In this document: positions 10,680 to 16,185 of the stretch, piece by piece | Layout: every line of letters begins with the position of its first letter | How positions within the stretch are numbered: position 1 is the first letter of the stretch | Source of the DNA: Oceanispirochaeta sp. | GTDB lineage: Bacteria; Spirochaetota; Spirochaetia; DSM-2461 | Length of the DNA: 64,000 nt | Direction of reading: 5' to 3' | NCBI GenBank assembly: GCA_963666275.2 | Contig: CAXXOA010000001.1 | Coordinates: 1,472,001 to 1,536,000 of the forward strand | Made by a program: the position numbers and the translations under genes | The notes under the pieces: generated by a model | Seen by the model: the letters and a program-made list of their open reading frames with translations, nothing else | Database searches by the model: none | What the model was told of the DNA's origin: nothing

Positions 10680-11111
10680 ATGAATATTGGATTAATCGGT
10701 TATGCTGCGGCTCTTGGATTGGCTGGTTTTGGTTCTGCATTCGGTGCAGGTGTGGCAGGACAGGCTGCAATCGGTGCTTGGAAAAAGGCTTTTGCCAATA
10801 ACAAACCCGCTCCCTTTCTGCTTGTTGCGTTCGTCGGTGCTCCTCTGACTCAGACAATCTACGGATTCATCCTTATGAATCAGATGATTGCGGCTATTGA
10901 AGCCGGCGGAGCGACTCTGGCTCATCTGGGAATGGGAATCTTCGGCGGTCTTGCCATGGGTGCTTCCGCCTATGCTCAGGGAAAAGCCGGTGCCGGTGCT
11001 GCAGATGCCATGGGTGAAACAGGAAAAGGTTTTGTAAACTACCTGATGGTTCTCGGTGTTATCGAGACTGTTGCCCTGTTTGCCATGGTATTCCTGATGG
11101 GTGCCCTCTAA
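10680..11111 (+). CDS. ntpK: V/A-type ATP synthase subunit K (four-helix proteolipid)
   Basis: ATG at 10680 after AAGGAGA; Gly/Ala-rich helices, PLTQTIYG, AQGK, IETVALF. Confidence 0.96.
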   Translation: MNIGLIGYAAALGLAGFGSAFGAGVAGQAAIGAWKKAFANNKPAPFLLVAFVGAPLTQTIYGFILMNQMIAAIEAGGATLAHLGMGIFGGLAMGASAYAQGKAGAGAADAMGETGKGFVNYLMVLGVIETVALFAMVFLMGAL

Positions 11112-11144
11112 TCGCAATCTGATTATCTGTAAATAAACGGAATA

Positions 11145-11180
11145 AGGCTGCTTTCCCATTCGGGAAAGCAGCTTTTTTTT
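11145..11180 (+). terminator. Intrinsic terminator of the ATPase operon
   Basis: GCTGCTTTCCC-attc-GGGAAAGCAGC followed by T8. Confidence 0.93.
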
Positions 11181-11298
11181 GTTCAGAATTTTTTGAGTCT
11201 ATAAATGTTTTTTATTGTATTTACAGATACAATTCGGATAGGCATTCTAATCTATTTAGTATACATACATTTTCCAATAGGTGTGATAGGATCATTGC

Positions 11299-12183
11299 GT
11301 GATCTATAATTATGAAACAGCGGCTAAAAAATATAATTCAGGATCATATTACTTTAATGCAAGGTGGTATGATGCCGGGACTGGTAGGTTTATATCTGAA
11401 GATCCGGCTCGTGACGGTTCAAACTGGTTCATTTACACCTACAATAACCCATTGAAATTCACCGATCCAACAGGCCTCGCTGCTTATGATGATGCTCCGG
11501 ATATGTCCCTTTCAGATGAGGATAAGGAAGAGATTCGAGCAGAGCGGGAACAAAATCAGAATGATGATGGTGAAAATAAAAAGGATGCGGAAAAAAAACC
11601 TGATGAATTATTAGAGCAGTCATGGGGTGAATTCTTTGCTGATTCGATGGAAGAATTTGTTTCAACCTTTGATCATTATACAGATTCGTATAATACAGCT
11701 AGAAATGAAGGTTTAATTGAAGGAGCTAAACAATTTACAGGAATTACTAACGTTGGTGATGCGATAGAGACCTTTGATGAAATTGGTATAGCAATAATGG
11801 GAGCAGGTGGTGTTTCTTTTGCAGGTCAAGTTGCGGCTCAATTAGAAAGTGCTACATCATGTATGGGTGCAAAAGCTGGTGCAAAAATGACCGAGTTAGG
11901 CTTAAAAACCCCAATGAAAAATGCTGGTGCTGCTCAAACACCTCGTTATTATAATCCCGAAACAGGACGTTTTGCTACTTCAGAACTTGCTGAAAGCAGA
12001 AAACAGGATGCTTATTCATCAATTGGTAAATTTAGTCGTGGTGTTGCAGAGGGTTATTTAGATGAATCTACACCAACATCAGAAAGTATTGCACCAGAAC
12101 CACGTTCAAGGCCACAAGCCGCTGGGCAAGCTGTTGGAAGAGGAATTCACCAGCTTCAGACAATTATGAAGGAGATCTTTTAG
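11299..12183 (+). CDS. Orphan (5'-truncated) Rhs-associated core plus C-terminal toxin domain
   Basis: YYFNARWYDAGTGRFISEDP...NWFIYTYNNPLKFTDPTGL at aa 17-60, then a 234-aa unrelated tail. No YD repeats upstream; start uncertain; AT-rich. Confidence 0.88.
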   Translation: MIYNYETAAKKYNSGSYYFNARWYDAGTGRFISEDPARDGSNWFIYTYNNPLKFTDPTGLAAYDDAPDMSLSDEDKEEIRAEREQNQNDDGENKKDAEKKPDELLEQSWGEFFADSMEEFVSTFDHYTDSYNTARNEGLIEGAKQFTGITNVGDAIETFDEIGIAIMGAGGVSFAGQVAAQLESATSCMGAKAGAKMTELGLKTPMKNAGAAQTPRYYNPETGRFATSELAESRKQDAYSSIGKFSRGVAEGYLDESTPTSESIAPEPRSRPQAAGQAVGRGIHQLQTIMKEIF

Positions 12184-12684
12184 GTGATAATTATTGTTAT
12201 TGCTAGTATAATATTGTTGCTTTTTTTAATGAATCGCTATTTTTTTAATAAACCTTATAAACATAAAAATATTGGACTATCACAGTTAGAAAAATATTTA
12301 ATGATTTTAAGGAATAGTGGTTATGATGGCGGTTTTATTATTATTGAGAATGCAGTTACAAAAGAATTTGTTCAATTTCAGAAACATATCGATTCAAAAG
12401 GAAATATAACCCTTAATTCATCCTTCTTTCCAGTTGATTGGAATATGAAGTATTTTGGAGCCATAAAAGAGTACTTAGAAGAACAAGATTTTGAATATGA
12501 AATTATTGAAGACGAGGATGGAAAAGAAAGCATTGAGATTTTCTGTAATGATGATTTGTTGCTATGCGTTAAGTTAGTTAAAGATATAAATACCAAAGTA
12601 TTTGGAATGAATAAAGATGGAATGTTATTTTCTATATGGTTTGAAAATGTTTGTGAAAAGGATGTTTTGATAACTACAAAATAA
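12184..12684 (+). CDS. Putative cognate immunity protein with N-terminal membrane anchor
   Basis: GTG directly follows the toxin TAG; SD AAGGAGA lies inside the toxin 3' end; hydrophobic aa 2-16; very AT-rich. Confidence 0.7.
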   Translation: MIIIVIASIILLLFLMNRYFFNKPYKHKNIGLSQLEKYLMILRNSGYDGGFIIIENAVTKEFVQFQKHIDSKGNITLNSSFFPVDWNMKYFGAIKEYLEEQDFEYEIIEDEDGKESIEIFCNDDLLLCVKLVKDINTKVFGMNKDGMLFSIWFENVCEKDVLITTK

Positions 12685-12703
12685 TTATGACTCATAACCA
12701 TGA

Positions 12704-13911
12704 TGTACAGTGACGGTATTCACCTGACAGTTGGCTAAAAAATAGAGGTGGCCATCTCATCTCCAGAAGATATAATGATTTTACCACAAATTGTTATATC
12801 AGGAGGATTCAATGGCCACCAACAGGACTGTAGCACAAAAGGCTACACGCAGAAAGATGAGCATGCTTGAACTTGCAGAGGATCTAGGAAATGTCAGTAA
12901 GGCATGTAAGATCATGGGCTATTCGAGACAGCAGTTTTACGAGATCAGAAGGAACTATCAAACCTATGGGTCTCAGGGGCTGGTAGATAAATTACCTGGT
13001 CCAAGGAATCCACATCCCAATAGGGTCTCTGATGAGGTTGAAAGGGCTATTCTGGATTATAGCCTTCAGTATCCAACACATGGCTGTGTACGCGTTGCTC
13101 AGCAATTAGCTTTAAAGAGCATATCTGTAAGCTCAGGCGGCGTCAGAGGGGTCTGGATAAGGCATAACCTAGAAAATAAGTATCAGAGACTTCTTCGGCT
13201 AGAAGAGCATCAGGGAAAGAAGAAAATCAATCTAACTGAGGACCAGATCAGACTCCTTGAACGTTTTGATCCAGAGTTTAAAGAAAGACATATTGAAACC
13301 ACATGTACGGGAGAACTTGTTTCTATAGATACATTTATGGTCGGGACGTTGAAAGGAGTCGGTAGAGTATATTTGCAGACAGTTATTGATTGTCACAACC
13401 GGTATTCATGGGGACGTTTATATACAAATAAAATGCCCGTCACAGCTGTTCATGTTCTTAATAATGATGTTTTACCATTCTATGAGGAGCATGGAGTGAA
13501 GATTAAAACAGTACTTACCGACAATGGACGTGAGTACTGTGGAAGAGAAGATCATCATCCTTTCGAGCTCTTTTTGCAGCTGGAAGAAATTGAGCATAGA
13601 ACAACTAAAGTTCGTCGTCCCCAGAGTAATGGATTCGTTGAACGGATGCATAGAACATTACTTGATGAGCACTTCAGAATCAAAGGGCGAGAGAAGTTCT
13701 ATGAGTCAGTTTCAGAGATGCAAAAGGATCTGGATATCTACTTGAAATACTATAATGAAGAGCGTGCTCATCAGGGTAGAAATATGAAAGGTAGAACACC
13801 AAAGACAGCATTTTTTGAAGGTATTCAAGAAGAGCAAAAAAGCGGTAATCCCGCATAAGAAGTTTCATTATTCTTCTGGAGAGAGTGTCAGGTGAATACT
13901 GTCATTAAACA
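12704..13911 (+). mobile_element. IS481-family insertion sequence, complete (1208 bp)
   Basis: TGT...ACA ends; 26-bp inverted repeats at 12704-12729 and 13886-13911 (22/26 identical); flanking 7-bp direct repeat ACCATGA at 12697-12703 and 13912-13918. Confidence 0.95.
12812..13858 (+). CDS. IS481-family DDE transposase
   Basis: SD AGGAGG plus ATG at 12812; N-terminal HTH (LGNVSKACKIMGYSRQQFY); DDE motifs SIDTF, LTDNGREY, NGFVER; YNEERAHQG. Confidence 0.96.
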   Translation: MATNRTVAQKATRRKMSMLELAEDLGNVSKACKIMGYSRQQFYEIRRNYQTYGSQGLVDKLPGPRNPHPNRVSDEVERAILDYSLQYPTHGCVRVAQQLALKSISVSSGGVRGVWIRHNLENKYQRLLRLEEHQGKKKINLTEDQIRLLERFDPEFKERHIETTCTGELVSIDTFMVGTLKGVGRVYLQTVIDCHNRYSWGRLYTNKMPVTAVHVLNNDVLPFYEEHGVKIKTVLTDNGREYCGREDHHPFELFLQLEEIEHRTTKVRRPQSNGFVERMHRTLLDEHFRIKGREKFYESVSEMQKDLDIYLKYYNEERAHQGRNMKGRTPKTAFFEGIQEEQKSGNPA

Positions 13912-14046
13912 ACCATGAGCTCACCTGCCCAACTGCTGAACAATTCGTTCCGGAACCGGTAAAACGGTCAGGTGCAGCGTTCTTGTTATGATAGGCATTA
14001 TATTTTTCGCCGGAATGACTTTTTCCTGGTGAAGAATTTTTTCCGG

Positions 14047-14180
14047 GGTAGTGTCAAATATCTTTCGCAAATTTCAAAGACCTCAATCATCTTATCCAGT
14101 TACTACAATACATTCTCGTCCGTATTAAAGCCTATTAGAAGATTCATATTCAGATACTTTCTTTCACTCCAGGTCGATCC
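14047..14180 (-). pseudogene. IS256-family remnant: transposase C-terminal tip plus one terminal inverted repeat
   Basis: Minus strand reads GSTWSERKYLNMNLLIGFNTDENVL* (14103-14180), like the W-x-x-R/K-x-Y-L-N-M tail of IS256 transposases. It is followed by AAATTTGCGAAAGATATTTGACACTACC (14047-14074), resembling IS256-group ends. Confidence 0.65.
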
Positions 14181-14209
14181 GTTCTGGCATCAGTAAAAAC
14201 GGTCAGCTG
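14180..14209 (+). repeat. Degenerate copy of the attC-like right arm
   Basis: CGTTCTGGCATCAGTAAAAACGGTCAGCTG aligns with CGTTCCGGAACCGGT-AAAACGGTCAGGTG (13946-13974) with 5 mismatches and 1 gap. Confidence 0.55.
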
Positions 14210-14261
14210 ATTTTCCTATAAAAAAAGCATTCACTTGAGTAGCTTGAGAAGTCTTCTGATT

Positions 14262-14618
14262 TCAAATAAAGCGCCCGGGTGATACCTGAAAGATTTCAGC
14301 TAATTGATGTGCTGTTGCCTTACTGATTCCTCTGGTTCCACGTTCCATGGCAGAAATATTCTGCTTTGCCATTCCCAGTTTCTCTCCGAGCTGAGTCTGG
14401 CTCATTCCATTTCTTTTCCTGTAGCGTTTAAGAACCTGCCCGGGAGTAGATTTATTCGCCTTTTCCCTGTACCACGCAGTTTGAGTGATATCTACAAGCT
14501 CTTCATCATTATTAATAATTTCAACATTATGGTAGTTGTCAGTAAGAAATTTCAGGAGTTTTTCCGGAATCTCTTCAGCATTTATTTCAATATGGGGCTT
14601 TTTCACGACTGCCAGCAT
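14262..14618 (-). CDS. XRE-family HTH antitoxin (HigA-like)
   Basis: LKRYRKRNGMSQTQLGEKLGMAKQNISAMERG HTH; SD GGAGG; overlaps the toxin by 32 nt. Confidence 0.88.
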   Translation of the reverse strand: MLAVVKKPHIEINAEEIPEKLLKFLTDNYHNVEIINNDEELVDITQTAWYREKANKSTPGQVLKRYRKRNGMSQTQLGEKLGMAKQNISAMERGTRGISKATAHQLAEIFQVSPGRFI

Positions 14619-14859
14619 AATAAACCTCCAATTCTAATTGGTCATCTGATATAATTCTCCAACAGGCAACCCATCTGTAATCCAAATGGCAATGGAATTC
14701 AGTCTTGTCGTTGTTCAAGGGACTGAAATTCTTCCAACCTTTCTGGATTGGTCCTGTCGCTCTCAAATCTTCTACAAGGTCAAAAAAGTCATCTTGCCGA
14801 GCGGAAGGCATCTTCTTCACATTTTTCAAGACTTTATTTTTTATCTCAACCTTGTACAT
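14587..14859 (-). CDS. RelE/HigB-like toxin
   Basis: About 90 aa, MYKVEIKNKVLK...FHCHLDYRWVACW...YYAGSREKAPY; toxin-first arrangement upstream of the HTH gene. Confidence 0.8.
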   Translation of the reverse strand: MYKVEIKNKVLKNVKKMPSARQDDFFDLVEDLRATGPIQKGWKNFSPLNNDKTEFHCHLDYRWVACWRIISDDQLELEVYYAGSREKAPY

Positions 14860-14865
14860 GTATAA

Positions 14866-14894
14866 ATAGTAATGCAAATATGATTACCTGTAAA
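14866..14894 (-). promoter_or_regulatory. Sigma70-like promoter of the TA operon with overlapping palindrome
   Basis: TTTACA-N17-TACTAT, 6 nt before ATG 14859; GTAAT-N9-ATTAC at 14869-14887. Confidence 0.6.
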
Positions 14895-15117
14895 TGTTAA
14901 AAACTTTAGTTTATGTATTTTCTCTATGATAAAATCAGTCTTTCAGATTTGCCGGATTACCATTAGTATCGAAATCGGGTTAAAAATTTCATAACTTTGG
15001 TTCTGTTTCATCCTGCTGGTTACTCCAAAACCTTTGCATTCTTCCATTTCTATCAAGAAAAATACTCTTCTGTCTTTTTCCCTAATCCTCTATAATACGG
15101 TTCATAAGGATTTTAAT

Positions 15118-16185
15118 ATGACACAGATTCATCAGGTAAAAATAGGCTCTGTTCTGATCGGAGGCGGAGCCCCGGTATCCATTCAGACTATGTGGGATAA
15201 ACCTGTAACCCGGATAGACGAAGAACTGCTGAAAACACTTGATTCTTTCCATAAAAAAGGCTGCGATATCATTCGTTTTGCCCTGCCCAGTCTCCAGGAC
15301 GTGGATGTTATCTCCCGTCTCATCCCTCAGGTGCCCATGCCTCTGGTGGGAGATATCCATTTCGATTATAAAATTGCGCTGAAAGCCATTGAGAAAGGTT
15401 TTCCCAAAATCAGGATTAATCCCGGCAATATAGGGGCGGACTGGAAGGTTCAGGAGATCATAAAAGCGGCGGCCGACAGTGGGACCGCCATCAGGATCGG
15501 AGCCAACGAAGGTTCCCTTTCGGCAGACCAGAAGAAAATCGCCGCCGATGATTCTCCCGAAGAAAGAGCCAAAGCCCTGGTGGCTGCGGCAGAGGCGAAT
15601 CTGGAACTGTTCGAACAGGCTGGTTTCAGGGATATAGTGATCTCACTCAAATCGTCGGATATCCATGTGACCTACCACAGCAACAGGCTTTTCCGGGAAC
15701 GCCACAGTTATCCGCTGCACCTGGGAATCACCGAAGCGGGACCTTTAATACCTGCAATAGTCAAATCTACGATCGGTTTGGCCGATCTTTTAAAGGAAGG
15801 GATTGGTGATACAGTCAGAATCTCCATATCAGACAATCCCGAATATGAAATCCTGGCAGCAGGGGAGTTGCTTCAGAATCTGGGGCTCCGCAAGGGACGG
15901 ATCAGGATTATTTCCTGCCCCAAATGCGGAAGATCCAGTTTTGATACCCACTCGTTCCTTGAATCTGTGAAGGAGGAACTTTATACTCTTCCCATGGATG
16001 TCTCTGTGGCTGTCATGGGATGTACAGTGAACGGTCCCGGTGAAGCCTCCCATGCAGATTTGGGAATCACAGGACATGGCAGGCAGATTCAGATTTTCCG
16101 GCATGGAAAAATCATTCGGAGGGAAGATCCTTGTTCAGCAAAAGAAGCTTTTCTGGAAGAGTTACGGCGTTTGCAGCAGGAGTAA
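15118..16185 (+). CDS. ispG: (E)-4-hydroxy-3-methylbut-2-enyl-diphosphate synthase
   Basis: DIHFDY, RINPGNIG, PLHLGITEAG, SCPKCGR, MGCTVNGPGE; ATG 15118 after AAGGA. Confidence 0.97.
   Translation: MTQIHQVKIGSVLIGGGAPVSIQTMWDKPVTRIDEELLKTLDSFHKKGCDIIRFALPSLQDVDVISRLIPQVPMPLVGDIHFDYKIALKAIEKGFPKIRINPGNIGADWKVQEIIKAAADSGTAIRIGANEGSLSADQKKIAADDSPEERAKALVAAAEANLELFEQAGFRDIVISLKSSDIHVTYHSNRLFRERHSYPLHLGITEAGPLIPAIVKSTIGLADLLKEGIGDTVRISISDNPEYEILAAGELLQNLGLRKGRIRIISCPKCGRSSFDTHSFLESVKEELYTLPMDVSVAVMGCTVNGPGEASHADLGITGHGRQIQIFRHGKIIRREDPCSAKEAFLEELRRLQQE

Follow-up and report, generated by a model that had tools for sequence, protein, structure and literature searches.

An attC-type site behind an Rhs toxin/immunity pair in Oceanispirochaeta: probable stranded cargo of a toxin-tip-exchanging element

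Introduction

Two kinds of described system lie closest to the locus treated here, the attC sites of integrons, including those remote from any integrase, and the orphan tips of Rhs polymorphic toxins. The locus is an islet between ntpK and ispG in a 64,000-nt stretch of an Oceanispirochaeta genome (the window, C1:1472001-1536000 of genome G000, which comprises 5.27 Mb in 3 contigs and is 97% complete); it joins an orphan Rhs tip and a candidate immunity gene to an attC-type site, two insertion sequences (ISs) and a toxin-antitoxin (TA) pair. The islet is probably the decayed or stranded cargo arm of an element that exchanges toxin tips and is served in trans by the chromosomal integron integrase, IntI.

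In integrons, attC sites measure 57-141 nt, and their extra bases lie opposite AAC on the recombined strand, the first and last 6 bp apart (Nivina 2016, PMC5027507). Clusters of attC lacking a nearby integrase (CALINs) and insertion by IntI at secondary sites are already known (PMC4889954; bioRxiv 10.1101/2022.09.11.507474). The islet site resembles attC, and the sites of CALINs and of single attC without an integrase (SALINs), in its hairpin geometry, outer boxes, central spacer and two extra bases 6 bp apart (Cury 2016, PMC4889954; bioRxiv 10.1101/2022.09.11.507474); further likenesses are that the integrase is missing from the locus but encoded elsewhere in the genome, that TA cassettes occur and that ISs lie within the cluster (PMC4889954). 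Unlike known attC, the islet site appears to face against the toxin/immunity genes, is tied to one gene class and seems to lie in the accessory arm of another element; its first extra base is C, and such sites show no strand asymmetry.

As to Rhs, Jackson 2009 (PMC2935791) credits the movement of orphan Rhs/CdiA tips to homologous recombination through hypothetical circles and says that integron integrase does not co-occur with Rhs. There, too, an orphan tip is followed by a variable C-terminus and a downstream gene, and a circular intermediate displaces the old tip; here, however, the breakpoint is fixed, a recombinase-bearing element would supply the circle and an attC closes each module. 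The effector-immunity arrays of the Vibrio cholerae type VI secretion system likewise show sequential displacement, which their authors compare to integrons, but those authors found no evidence of an integrase (PMC5361080), whereas an integrase and its sites are present here. In polyimmunity loci XerC/D recombinases stand beside immunity genes, and recombination was proposed for their accumulation (Zhang 2012, PMC3482391); these loci, and the rAID arrays taken up below, are immunity-only, whereas the present element has a toxin tip, a primase and ParA, inserts in a toxin gene and has integron-type sites.

The Islet and Its attC-Type Site

The islet is a lineage-specific insert, because ntpK and ispG adjoin in 9 of 10 congeners (gap 118-195 nt; the contig of the tenth stops before ispG) and lie ~4.0 kb apart in the window genome. 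Its GC content is 0.377, against 0.469 for the remaining window. An original prediction, made from the letters of this stretch alone, had placed an AT-rich islet lacking an integrase between the ATPase terminator and ispG and had proposed comparing the ntpK-ispG interval in relatives. Composition, place and insert status are borne out, no integrase lies within the islet, and all the named parts were found (Rhs tip, coupled candidate immunity gene, attC-like site, half site, two ISs and HigBA-like pair). Contigs from three runs of one sample cover the islet with zero differences, which is a check of the assembly and not independent support; three listed joints were set aside, their sides being just 21 nt. 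The parts on which the argument turns are as follows.

11144..11183, plus strand: intrinsic terminator of the V-type ATPase operon; the ntpK/ispG spacing in congeners makes it the left border between host DNA and insert
11184..11346, no strand assigned: AT-rich spacer, whose source was not found; query 11181-11365 against 37 other genomes gave a single 25-nt match (E 0.003)
11347..11360, plus strand: 14-bp core coding YYFNA, common left breakpoint of Rhs tips, the same in 24 tips
11299..12183, plus strand: orphan Rhs core tip (TIGR03696, ending DPTG) with a 235-aa C-terminal domain, a putative toxin of no known family; one open reading frame (ORF)
12184..12684, plus strand: candidate immunity protein, 166 aa, with a hydrophobic N-terminal helix; the next ORF, its start abutting the toxin stop
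12692..12703, minus strand: left piece of the attC, the R' (crossover) box in cassette orientation; predicted cleavage 12697/12698 on the plus strand
13919..13991, minus strand: right piece of the attC, with L stems, two extra bases (C and T, 6 bp apart, plus strand) and the outer box 13985-13991
~14176..14209, minus strand: decayed half copy of the same attC type (nhmmer E 0.012; 0/500 shuffles score as well)
14989..14995, minus strand: lone box, identical in sequence to the R' box of the site

The two attC pieces are separated by an IS; its removal in silico with one copy of the target duplication (12704-13918) gives a site of 85 nt, within the attC length range, whose outer boxes are 7/7 complementary and which starts 7 nt past the immunity stop, where the prediction had put it. 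The boxes carry AAC/GTT, the central spacer measures 5/6 nt, and the extra bases stand on one arm, the first and last 6 bp apart, in a bulge column that is invariant in the alignment of related sites (A1). A covariance model built from 21 sites, of which two are from G000 and none is the window site, matches the site despite the IS (13902-13991, 41.2 bits, E 3.1e-7), and this is its sole match in 64 kb. The single-strand folding energy of the partial site is unremarkable (z -0.57 and -0.71); folding energy alone is uninformative, and the case for an attC rests on geometry, covariation and position.

The degenerate second half site of the prediction also withstands the shuffles and is the probable former attC of the TA cassette, of which the lone box at 14989-14995 is a possible start. 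A third full attC at 14989 was considered and rejected, as its likeness was matched by 106/500 shuffles. Measured against a CALIN (at least two attC, no intI nearby), the window holds one IS-split site and one half site; it is no complete integron, intI lying ~420 kb from the islet and its site.

Sites of this class recur behind Rhs immunity genes. In an alignment of 21 of them 95.9% of cells pair on the attC structure, covariation is 0.386 against 0.120 in shuffles (0/500 reach it) with 8/17 pairs doubly changed, and slid controls give at most 0.09. Because related sequences can beat shuffles, a geometry-only scan was added, which on both strands of G000 gave 9 matches, namely 5 behind all 5 Rhs cores, 1 array attC and 3 in AT-rich DNA; four shuffled genomes gave 4, 6, 2 and 1. 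Two of the five core-linked sites, C2:2275 and C3:4879, are identical and a third is their degraded copy, so that the genome holds three distinct modules; a decayed copy also lies behind a remnant at C1:1792672. In the genus a same-strand model match stands within 4 kb behind 28/33 Rhs cores, the five others comprising 3 cut by contig ends and 2 that are cassettes of genome G010 (see below); altogether there are 40 model matches, 27 behind cores and several others being integron-array attC. The earlier expectation that copies would sit behind Rhs immunity genes is thereby supported, 5/5 in the window genome and 28/33 in the genus.

An ordinary, IS-littered Rhs scar with a chance hairpin would agree with the folding energy of the partial site and with two ISs in the islet, and is hardly credible: it is refuted by the covariation, by where the sites lie across the genome and by the near-identical bodies that follow unrelated immunity genes. 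The prediction had named three absences that would reduce the islet to such a scar, and none was observed, as an attC model match, genomic copies at ORF ends and an IntI are all present. The site behind the Rhs/immunity genes is a genuine attC-type site.

Box triplets of related sites vary between AAC, AAG and AAT (AAG/CTT in 5/20 alignment rows; AAT/ATT also occurs). The first base of the triplet may vary provided both partners match (Frumerie 2010, PMC2811028); if this rule applies, AAC, AAG and AAT sites would be separate classes.

Some further arrangements were observed. Many immunity genes are followed by runs of extra hairpin repeats resembling back-to-back attC halves (L075, L083, L017:2400-2600). 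At G000 C1:1669790-1673889 a 1053-aa non-Rhs toxin-like ORF and a lipoprotein of the formylglycine-generating enzyme (FGE)-sulfatase type end in a decayed site of the same type (C1:1669860), and a related pair in another family (G089) likewise ends in such a site. Finally, ~20 Rhs cores of variable length are arrayed at G036 C2:136000-203000 with few detected sites, an arrangement nearer the classical homologous model.

Orientation of the Site

The plus strand of the window site fits the rule of Nivina 2016, with C and T as extra bases. In cassette orientation the extra base of host-array attC stands on the left arm; in Rhs-linked sites it stands on the right arm when these are read in Rhs orientation, and the model built in that orientation matches array attC on their bottom strand. 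Junctions agree with this geometry. An immunity gene end common to G000 and G011 (98.9% over 183 nt) loses identity at the C of the left box, after which the bodies differ; conversely, one body with its TA pair occurs behind different immunity genes, identity beginning at the left box. TA pairs of G010 stop 1 and 18 nt short of sites that point the same way, the latter being a homolog of the window's pair (toxin 73%, antitoxin 66%) whose antitoxin ends 18 nt before the attC behind another Rhs/immunity pair.

Since bulge geometry and junction evidence agree, the window attC is taken to face against the Rhs/immunity genes, and the TA pair to be a normally oriented cassette. This overturns two parts of the original prediction, which had seen the ORF-then-attC layout of a cassette and an inverted TA pair: the site faces the opposite way, the window has no upstream att site, and it is the Rhs/immunity genes that are inverted.

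The Chromosomal Integron

The prediction had called for an integrase encoded elsewhere, and an intact IntI is indeed encoded at C1:1063487-1064710 (390 bits against a cut-off of 265), with its catalytic motifs kept and at the head of its own array. IntI scores above the cut-off in 24/38 family genomes. In G010 the attI crossover could be pinned by comparison with G004, and the first cassette there consists of an antisense immunity gene and an Rhs tip, with no hairpin after the immunity stop; a second G010 cassette of the Rhs/immunity type has 741 bp in common at 92%. The attI cassette is the best evidence that IntI handles Rhs/immunity modules, as its place suggests, and agrees with the earlier idea that integrons capture such modules; its Rhs subtype differs from the window's, and in G010 intI is now interrupted by an in-frame stop.

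This evidence bears on the proposal that homologous recombination, or the element alone, moves the tips, and that TA cassettes merely enter attG-like sites near immunity ends, IntI not moving toxin modules. IntI does insert cassettes at genomic attG sites (bioRxiv 10.1101/2022.09.11.507474), the G010 TA pairs end 1-18 nt before a site of the same orientation, and longer tips of variable rhs length exist. Random insertion would not, however, put sites behind 28/33 cores and almost none elsewhere in G000; there are two Rhs/immunity cassettes in G010, and many Rhs-linked sites have no adjoining TA pair. We regard this course of events as improbable.

The host integron has features of its own. Its array in G000 (C1:1038000-1061500) contains seven copies of a group II intron reverse transcriptase, one of them IS-interrupted, and the two intron junctions read both lie in the first box of an attC. 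In the family's array attC the bottom-strand extra bases, usually G and T, are C, plus A 6 bp off in the sites read. At C1:1290216 and 1292468 two sites form a separate cassette cluster that lacks an integrase.

The Rhs Tip and the Two-Recombinase Element

The Rhs core tip scores 54.8 bits with TIGR03696, above the cut-off, and a core domain ending in DPxG with a variable C-terminus behind it, the hallmark of Rhs polymorphic toxins, is present in the window; codons upstream of 11347 in ORF 11299-12183 are not rhs-derived. No Pfam family matched the C-terminal domain, its Atlas matches score at most 0.84 over mixed families, and its structure model is unusable (pLDDT 33). The candidate immunity protein has 231 relatives at E<=0.001, and its family, which has no name, counts at least 231 clusters; its structure model is confident (pLDDT 97), no PDB entry matched the fold at E<=0.001, and TY-Chap3 in 1/69 members and an Atlas score of 0.80 are leads only. 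The window tip has no in-frame delivery protein, and a full-length repeat cage for delivery was not found in G000, where the longest core-bearing frame measures 450 aa; relatives have frames of >3,200 aa.

The left end of the tip leads to a different kind of element. All 24 genus tips that were chosen by pattern for the YYxNA motif start at its codons (tips of the other subtype, which vary in length, were left uncounted): 6 after native rhs, 11 after an element end and 7, the window's included, after unrelated DNA. The element spans ~9 kb at G000 C2/C3 (the two sides of one locus) and carries the tip with its immunity gene and site, then BrnTA, XRE, two small genes, ParA, a CHC2/Toprim primase and a pair of tyrosine recombinases; in G015 and G016 a full-length rhs comes first, followed by immunity gene, backbone, recombinases and, last, the tip. 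The 14-bp core would then be the attachment core of this two-recombinase element. At a LysM locus G009 equals G000 up to the breakpoint, and the empty site in G003 continues with core-like sequence; the same comparison at the rhomboid-trpE and miaB loci gave no core-like sequence in G000. Different TA-like genes occupy the accessory arm in different copies, as expected if cassettes were swapped there.

The closest homolog of the window tip, P0005 (74%), starts with translated element-end sequence, and the longest contig is 21,639 nt for both P0005 and the immunity homolog P0002; because P0005 lies behind an element end and P0002 matches in the longest contig, the window cargo is taken to be cargo of the element. 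The relic of an ordinary cassette array that the prediction proposed gives way here, for the left end and the origin both lead back to a separate element, with a primase and two recombinases, whose target is the rhs core.

It might be asked whether it is the element's own recombinase pair, and not IntI, that acts on the hairpins, as has been proposed for rAID-type arrays. Bacteroidales rAID, which Ross reportedly described in 2019, is said to be an array of orphan immunity genes headed by an XerD-like recombinase; the islet has no recombinase, and the element has toxin tips, a primase and ParA. The sites do lie inside the element, are strand-ambiguous and have variable triplets (AAG/CTT in 5/20 rows); against this, triplets may differ in their first base when partners match (Frumerie 2010, PMC2811028), both recombinases score far under the IntI cut-off (88.9 and 103 against 265), related elements elsewhere have no such sites (0/91 by model, 1/32 by geometry), the same model matches host-integron attC, and G010 has its attI junction. 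Service by the element's own recombinases is thus unlikely, if a shade less so than the insertion of TA cassettes alone.

The contig break at G000 C3:1-6141 / C2:1-11670 falls inside a tandem array of the element, whose last cargo copy there is frameshifted, which may be an assembly error. Longer Rhs fragments (L015:6950, L015:8655, L054:6395) start at a second common point, a YD-repeat motif ~150 codons before the core end, which is a possible second breakpoint.

A Model for Tip Exchange

In the probable scenario stated at the outset, an element with an XRE repressor, ParA, a CHC2/Toprim primase and two tyrosine recombinases would insert into rhs at the fixed YYxNA core, where the recombinase pair would cut and integrate the circle, so that the resident Rhs would gain a new C-terminal toxin and immunity gene and the old pair would be displaced downstream, behind the element; the element would also land at look-alike chromosomal sites. 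Every pair passed through it would end, at the immunity stop, in an attC facing against the Rhs genes. On the Rhs-sense strand, at the box beside the immunity stop, the chromosomal IntI would act in trans, adding or removing self-promoted TA cassettes, and it could put Rhs/immunity units into the integron itself. Recombination between two sites flanking an integrated element would excise backbone and old tip and leave the new tip, thereby swapping the cargo. The window copy would have landed at, or moved to, a non-rhs site and lost its backbone before IS256 and IS481 inserted. As the backbone is lost, no in-frame delivery protein exists and both sites are IS-damaged, the copy is now probably a silent tip, retained together with the TA pair.

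Of this scenario, sequence comparison itself shows the common breakpoint, the element's place inside rhs genes, the class and orientation of the sites, exchange at the left box and one cassette at attI. Several observations do not sit easily with it. Close recombinase homologs occur in just 2/10 congeners; the window has 163 nt of unexplained DNA between the host terminator and the core and lacks a right attachment site, and neither an excised circle nor an IS-free allele was seen. A toxic role for the C-terminal domain, and its neutralisation by the product of the next gene, are predicted from position. Among the 40 genus model matches 18 are training sites, and just 9 of the 22 others are behind a core. 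The first extra base on the recombined strand of an attC is usually G, and that strand is the more stable and carries a nucleotide skew; in the window site the base is C, as in the array attC of the host family. Between strands, folding of 27 Rhs-linked sites differs by +0.08 kcal/mol (15 sense, 11 antisense), that of array attC by -4.19 kcal/mol (12/14 sites), and the G/C skew of the Rhs-linked sites favours the antisense strand. In 13/21 site pairs with a common downstream flank (pairs that are not independent) the bodies differ, identity starting just inside the right box, so that a further breakpoint lies there. Outside the genus, sites near cores are canonical in 11 cases and reversed in 3. 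Rhs-linked sites may recombine on both strands, or short-homology recombination may reshuffle them.

Some of these points would suit a relic CALIN array, in which Rhs tip and immunity gene were a normal ORF-then-attC cassette, recombination used the antisense strand and the TA pair served as an inverted stabiliser. Stops at or near the left box, as in ordinary cassettes, the switching of bodies at the right box, the skew and the many immunity genes with canonical attC outside the genus all fit such an array. The extra bases are on the wrong arm for it, however, an upstream attC is absent from the window, at the left box the same immunity end leads into two different bodies, and the left ends fall at the element core and not at a GTT box. 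A relic array of this kind has little probability, about that of TA cassettes entering attG-like sites, and the stranded cargo arm is preferred.

Insertion Sequences and the TA Pair

The remaining features of the islet are listed here.

12704..13911, plus strand: IS481-family element inside the attC, with 26-nt terminal repeats (NF033577, 258.5 bits against a cut-off of 224)
13912..13918, plus strand: second copy of the 7-nt target duplication, the first being 12697-12703
13992..14046, no strand assigned: conserved flank of 55 nt, common to other Rhs loci, start of the element's accessory arm
14047..14181, minus strand: right-end remnant of an IS256-family element, 135 bp, abutting the half site; 87% to the end of an IS256-family element in G004
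14262..14618, minus strand: XRE/HTH_3 antitoxin, HigA-like, below the family cut-off
14587..14877, minus strand: RelE-superfamily toxin, HigB/YafQ-like, with weak matches to PF15738 (E 0.024) and TIGR00053 (E 0.008)
14866..14894, minus strand: promoter-like match shortly before the toxin ATG, no better than chance

Two different ISs at the two sites had been predicted and are present, IS481 splitting the attC and IS256, of which the 135-bp remnant is all that is left, abutting the half site; the IS256 call was made through copies in G004 and G028. One identical further IS481 copy lies at C1:538339-539546, and a preference of this element for attC was considered and rejected, the flanks of that only other full copy not being attC. 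The flank at 13992-14046 is 87% identical over 62 nt to G000 C2/C3 and 78-84% to four places in G009.

HigBA systems are type II TA pairs in which a RelE-fold toxin gene stands upstream of an XRE antitoxin gene. The pair at 14262-14877 fits this in its HTH_3 domain and its order, toxin before antitoxin, both genes scoring under their family cut-offs; the toxin likely starts at the ATG at 14859. For the promoter that the pair was originally supposed to carry, the match at 14894-14866 does not exceed chance expectation (14 such matches against 12.9 expected). An Rfam scan of 10800-15500 gave a single chance match (E 1.8).

Distribution Beyond the Genus

Recombinase homologs at E<=1e-40 occur in 15/301 class genomes; an Rhs core follows directly in three that lie outside the family, and six matches in family f2 lack one and resemble ordinary Xer genes. 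Among the best 80 metagenome loci 16 have an Rhs core downstream. Of 308 plasmid records matched by the primase, 30 align over >80% of its length, and viral contigs gave one weak primase match. In 4/4 PLSDB records inspected, XRE, primase and xerC lie beside toxin/immunity-type genes. These Proteobacterial modules resemble the element in their large toxin-type gene, reversed XRE, primase, recombinase and small toxin/immunity-type genes, and one is an 11.3-kb circle; unlike it, they have one recombinase, no annotated ParA and no attC by model or scan. The circle, NZ_CP072857.1, is filed as a Lonsdalea plasmid and carries xerC, primase, XRE, SymE and toxin/immunity genes; it may be an excised element.

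The site model gave 0 matches in 91 related outside loci and the geometry scan 1 match in 32 loci, while at E<=1e-5 the model finds sites in 5/150 class genomes, 2 of them outside the family. The coupling to attC thus looks confined to this family and a few neighbours, as far as matches to the model reveal it; other attC families could escape the model. One contig labelled Christensenellaceae (L133) carries a whole element, an Rhs tip and a canonically oriented site, by transfer or through mis-binning.

A bolder reading, advanced tentatively and falling somewhat short of likely, is that primase/tyrosine-recombinase elements are the widespread missing circular carrier of polymorphic-toxin tips, coupled in this spirochaete family to the host integron; site-specific insertion at the core would alternate with IntI excision between backward-facing attC that are possibly active on two strands, and the triplet classes would not cross-react.

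Implications

In the literature no description was found of attC behind Rhs immunity genes, or of a primase-recombinase element as a carrier of tips; subscription journals were thinly covered, so one may exist. PMC8138268, PMC10210955, PMC10991766 and PMC9892861 gave no relevant passage, and PMC3607928 gave only Treponema integrons. The system is a new combination of known parts, and the backward use of attC for toxin swapping would be previously undescribed.

These genomes provide toxin tips with a concrete carrier whose attachment core is defined, and tie integrons directly to interbacterial toxin exchange. The sites widen the known range of attC by their C as first extra base, variable triplet, lack of strand skew and reverse orientation, which bears on the origin of cassettes and on what attC finders miss. 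If the scenario is true, an element could enter a genome with one toxin/immunity pair and leave with another.

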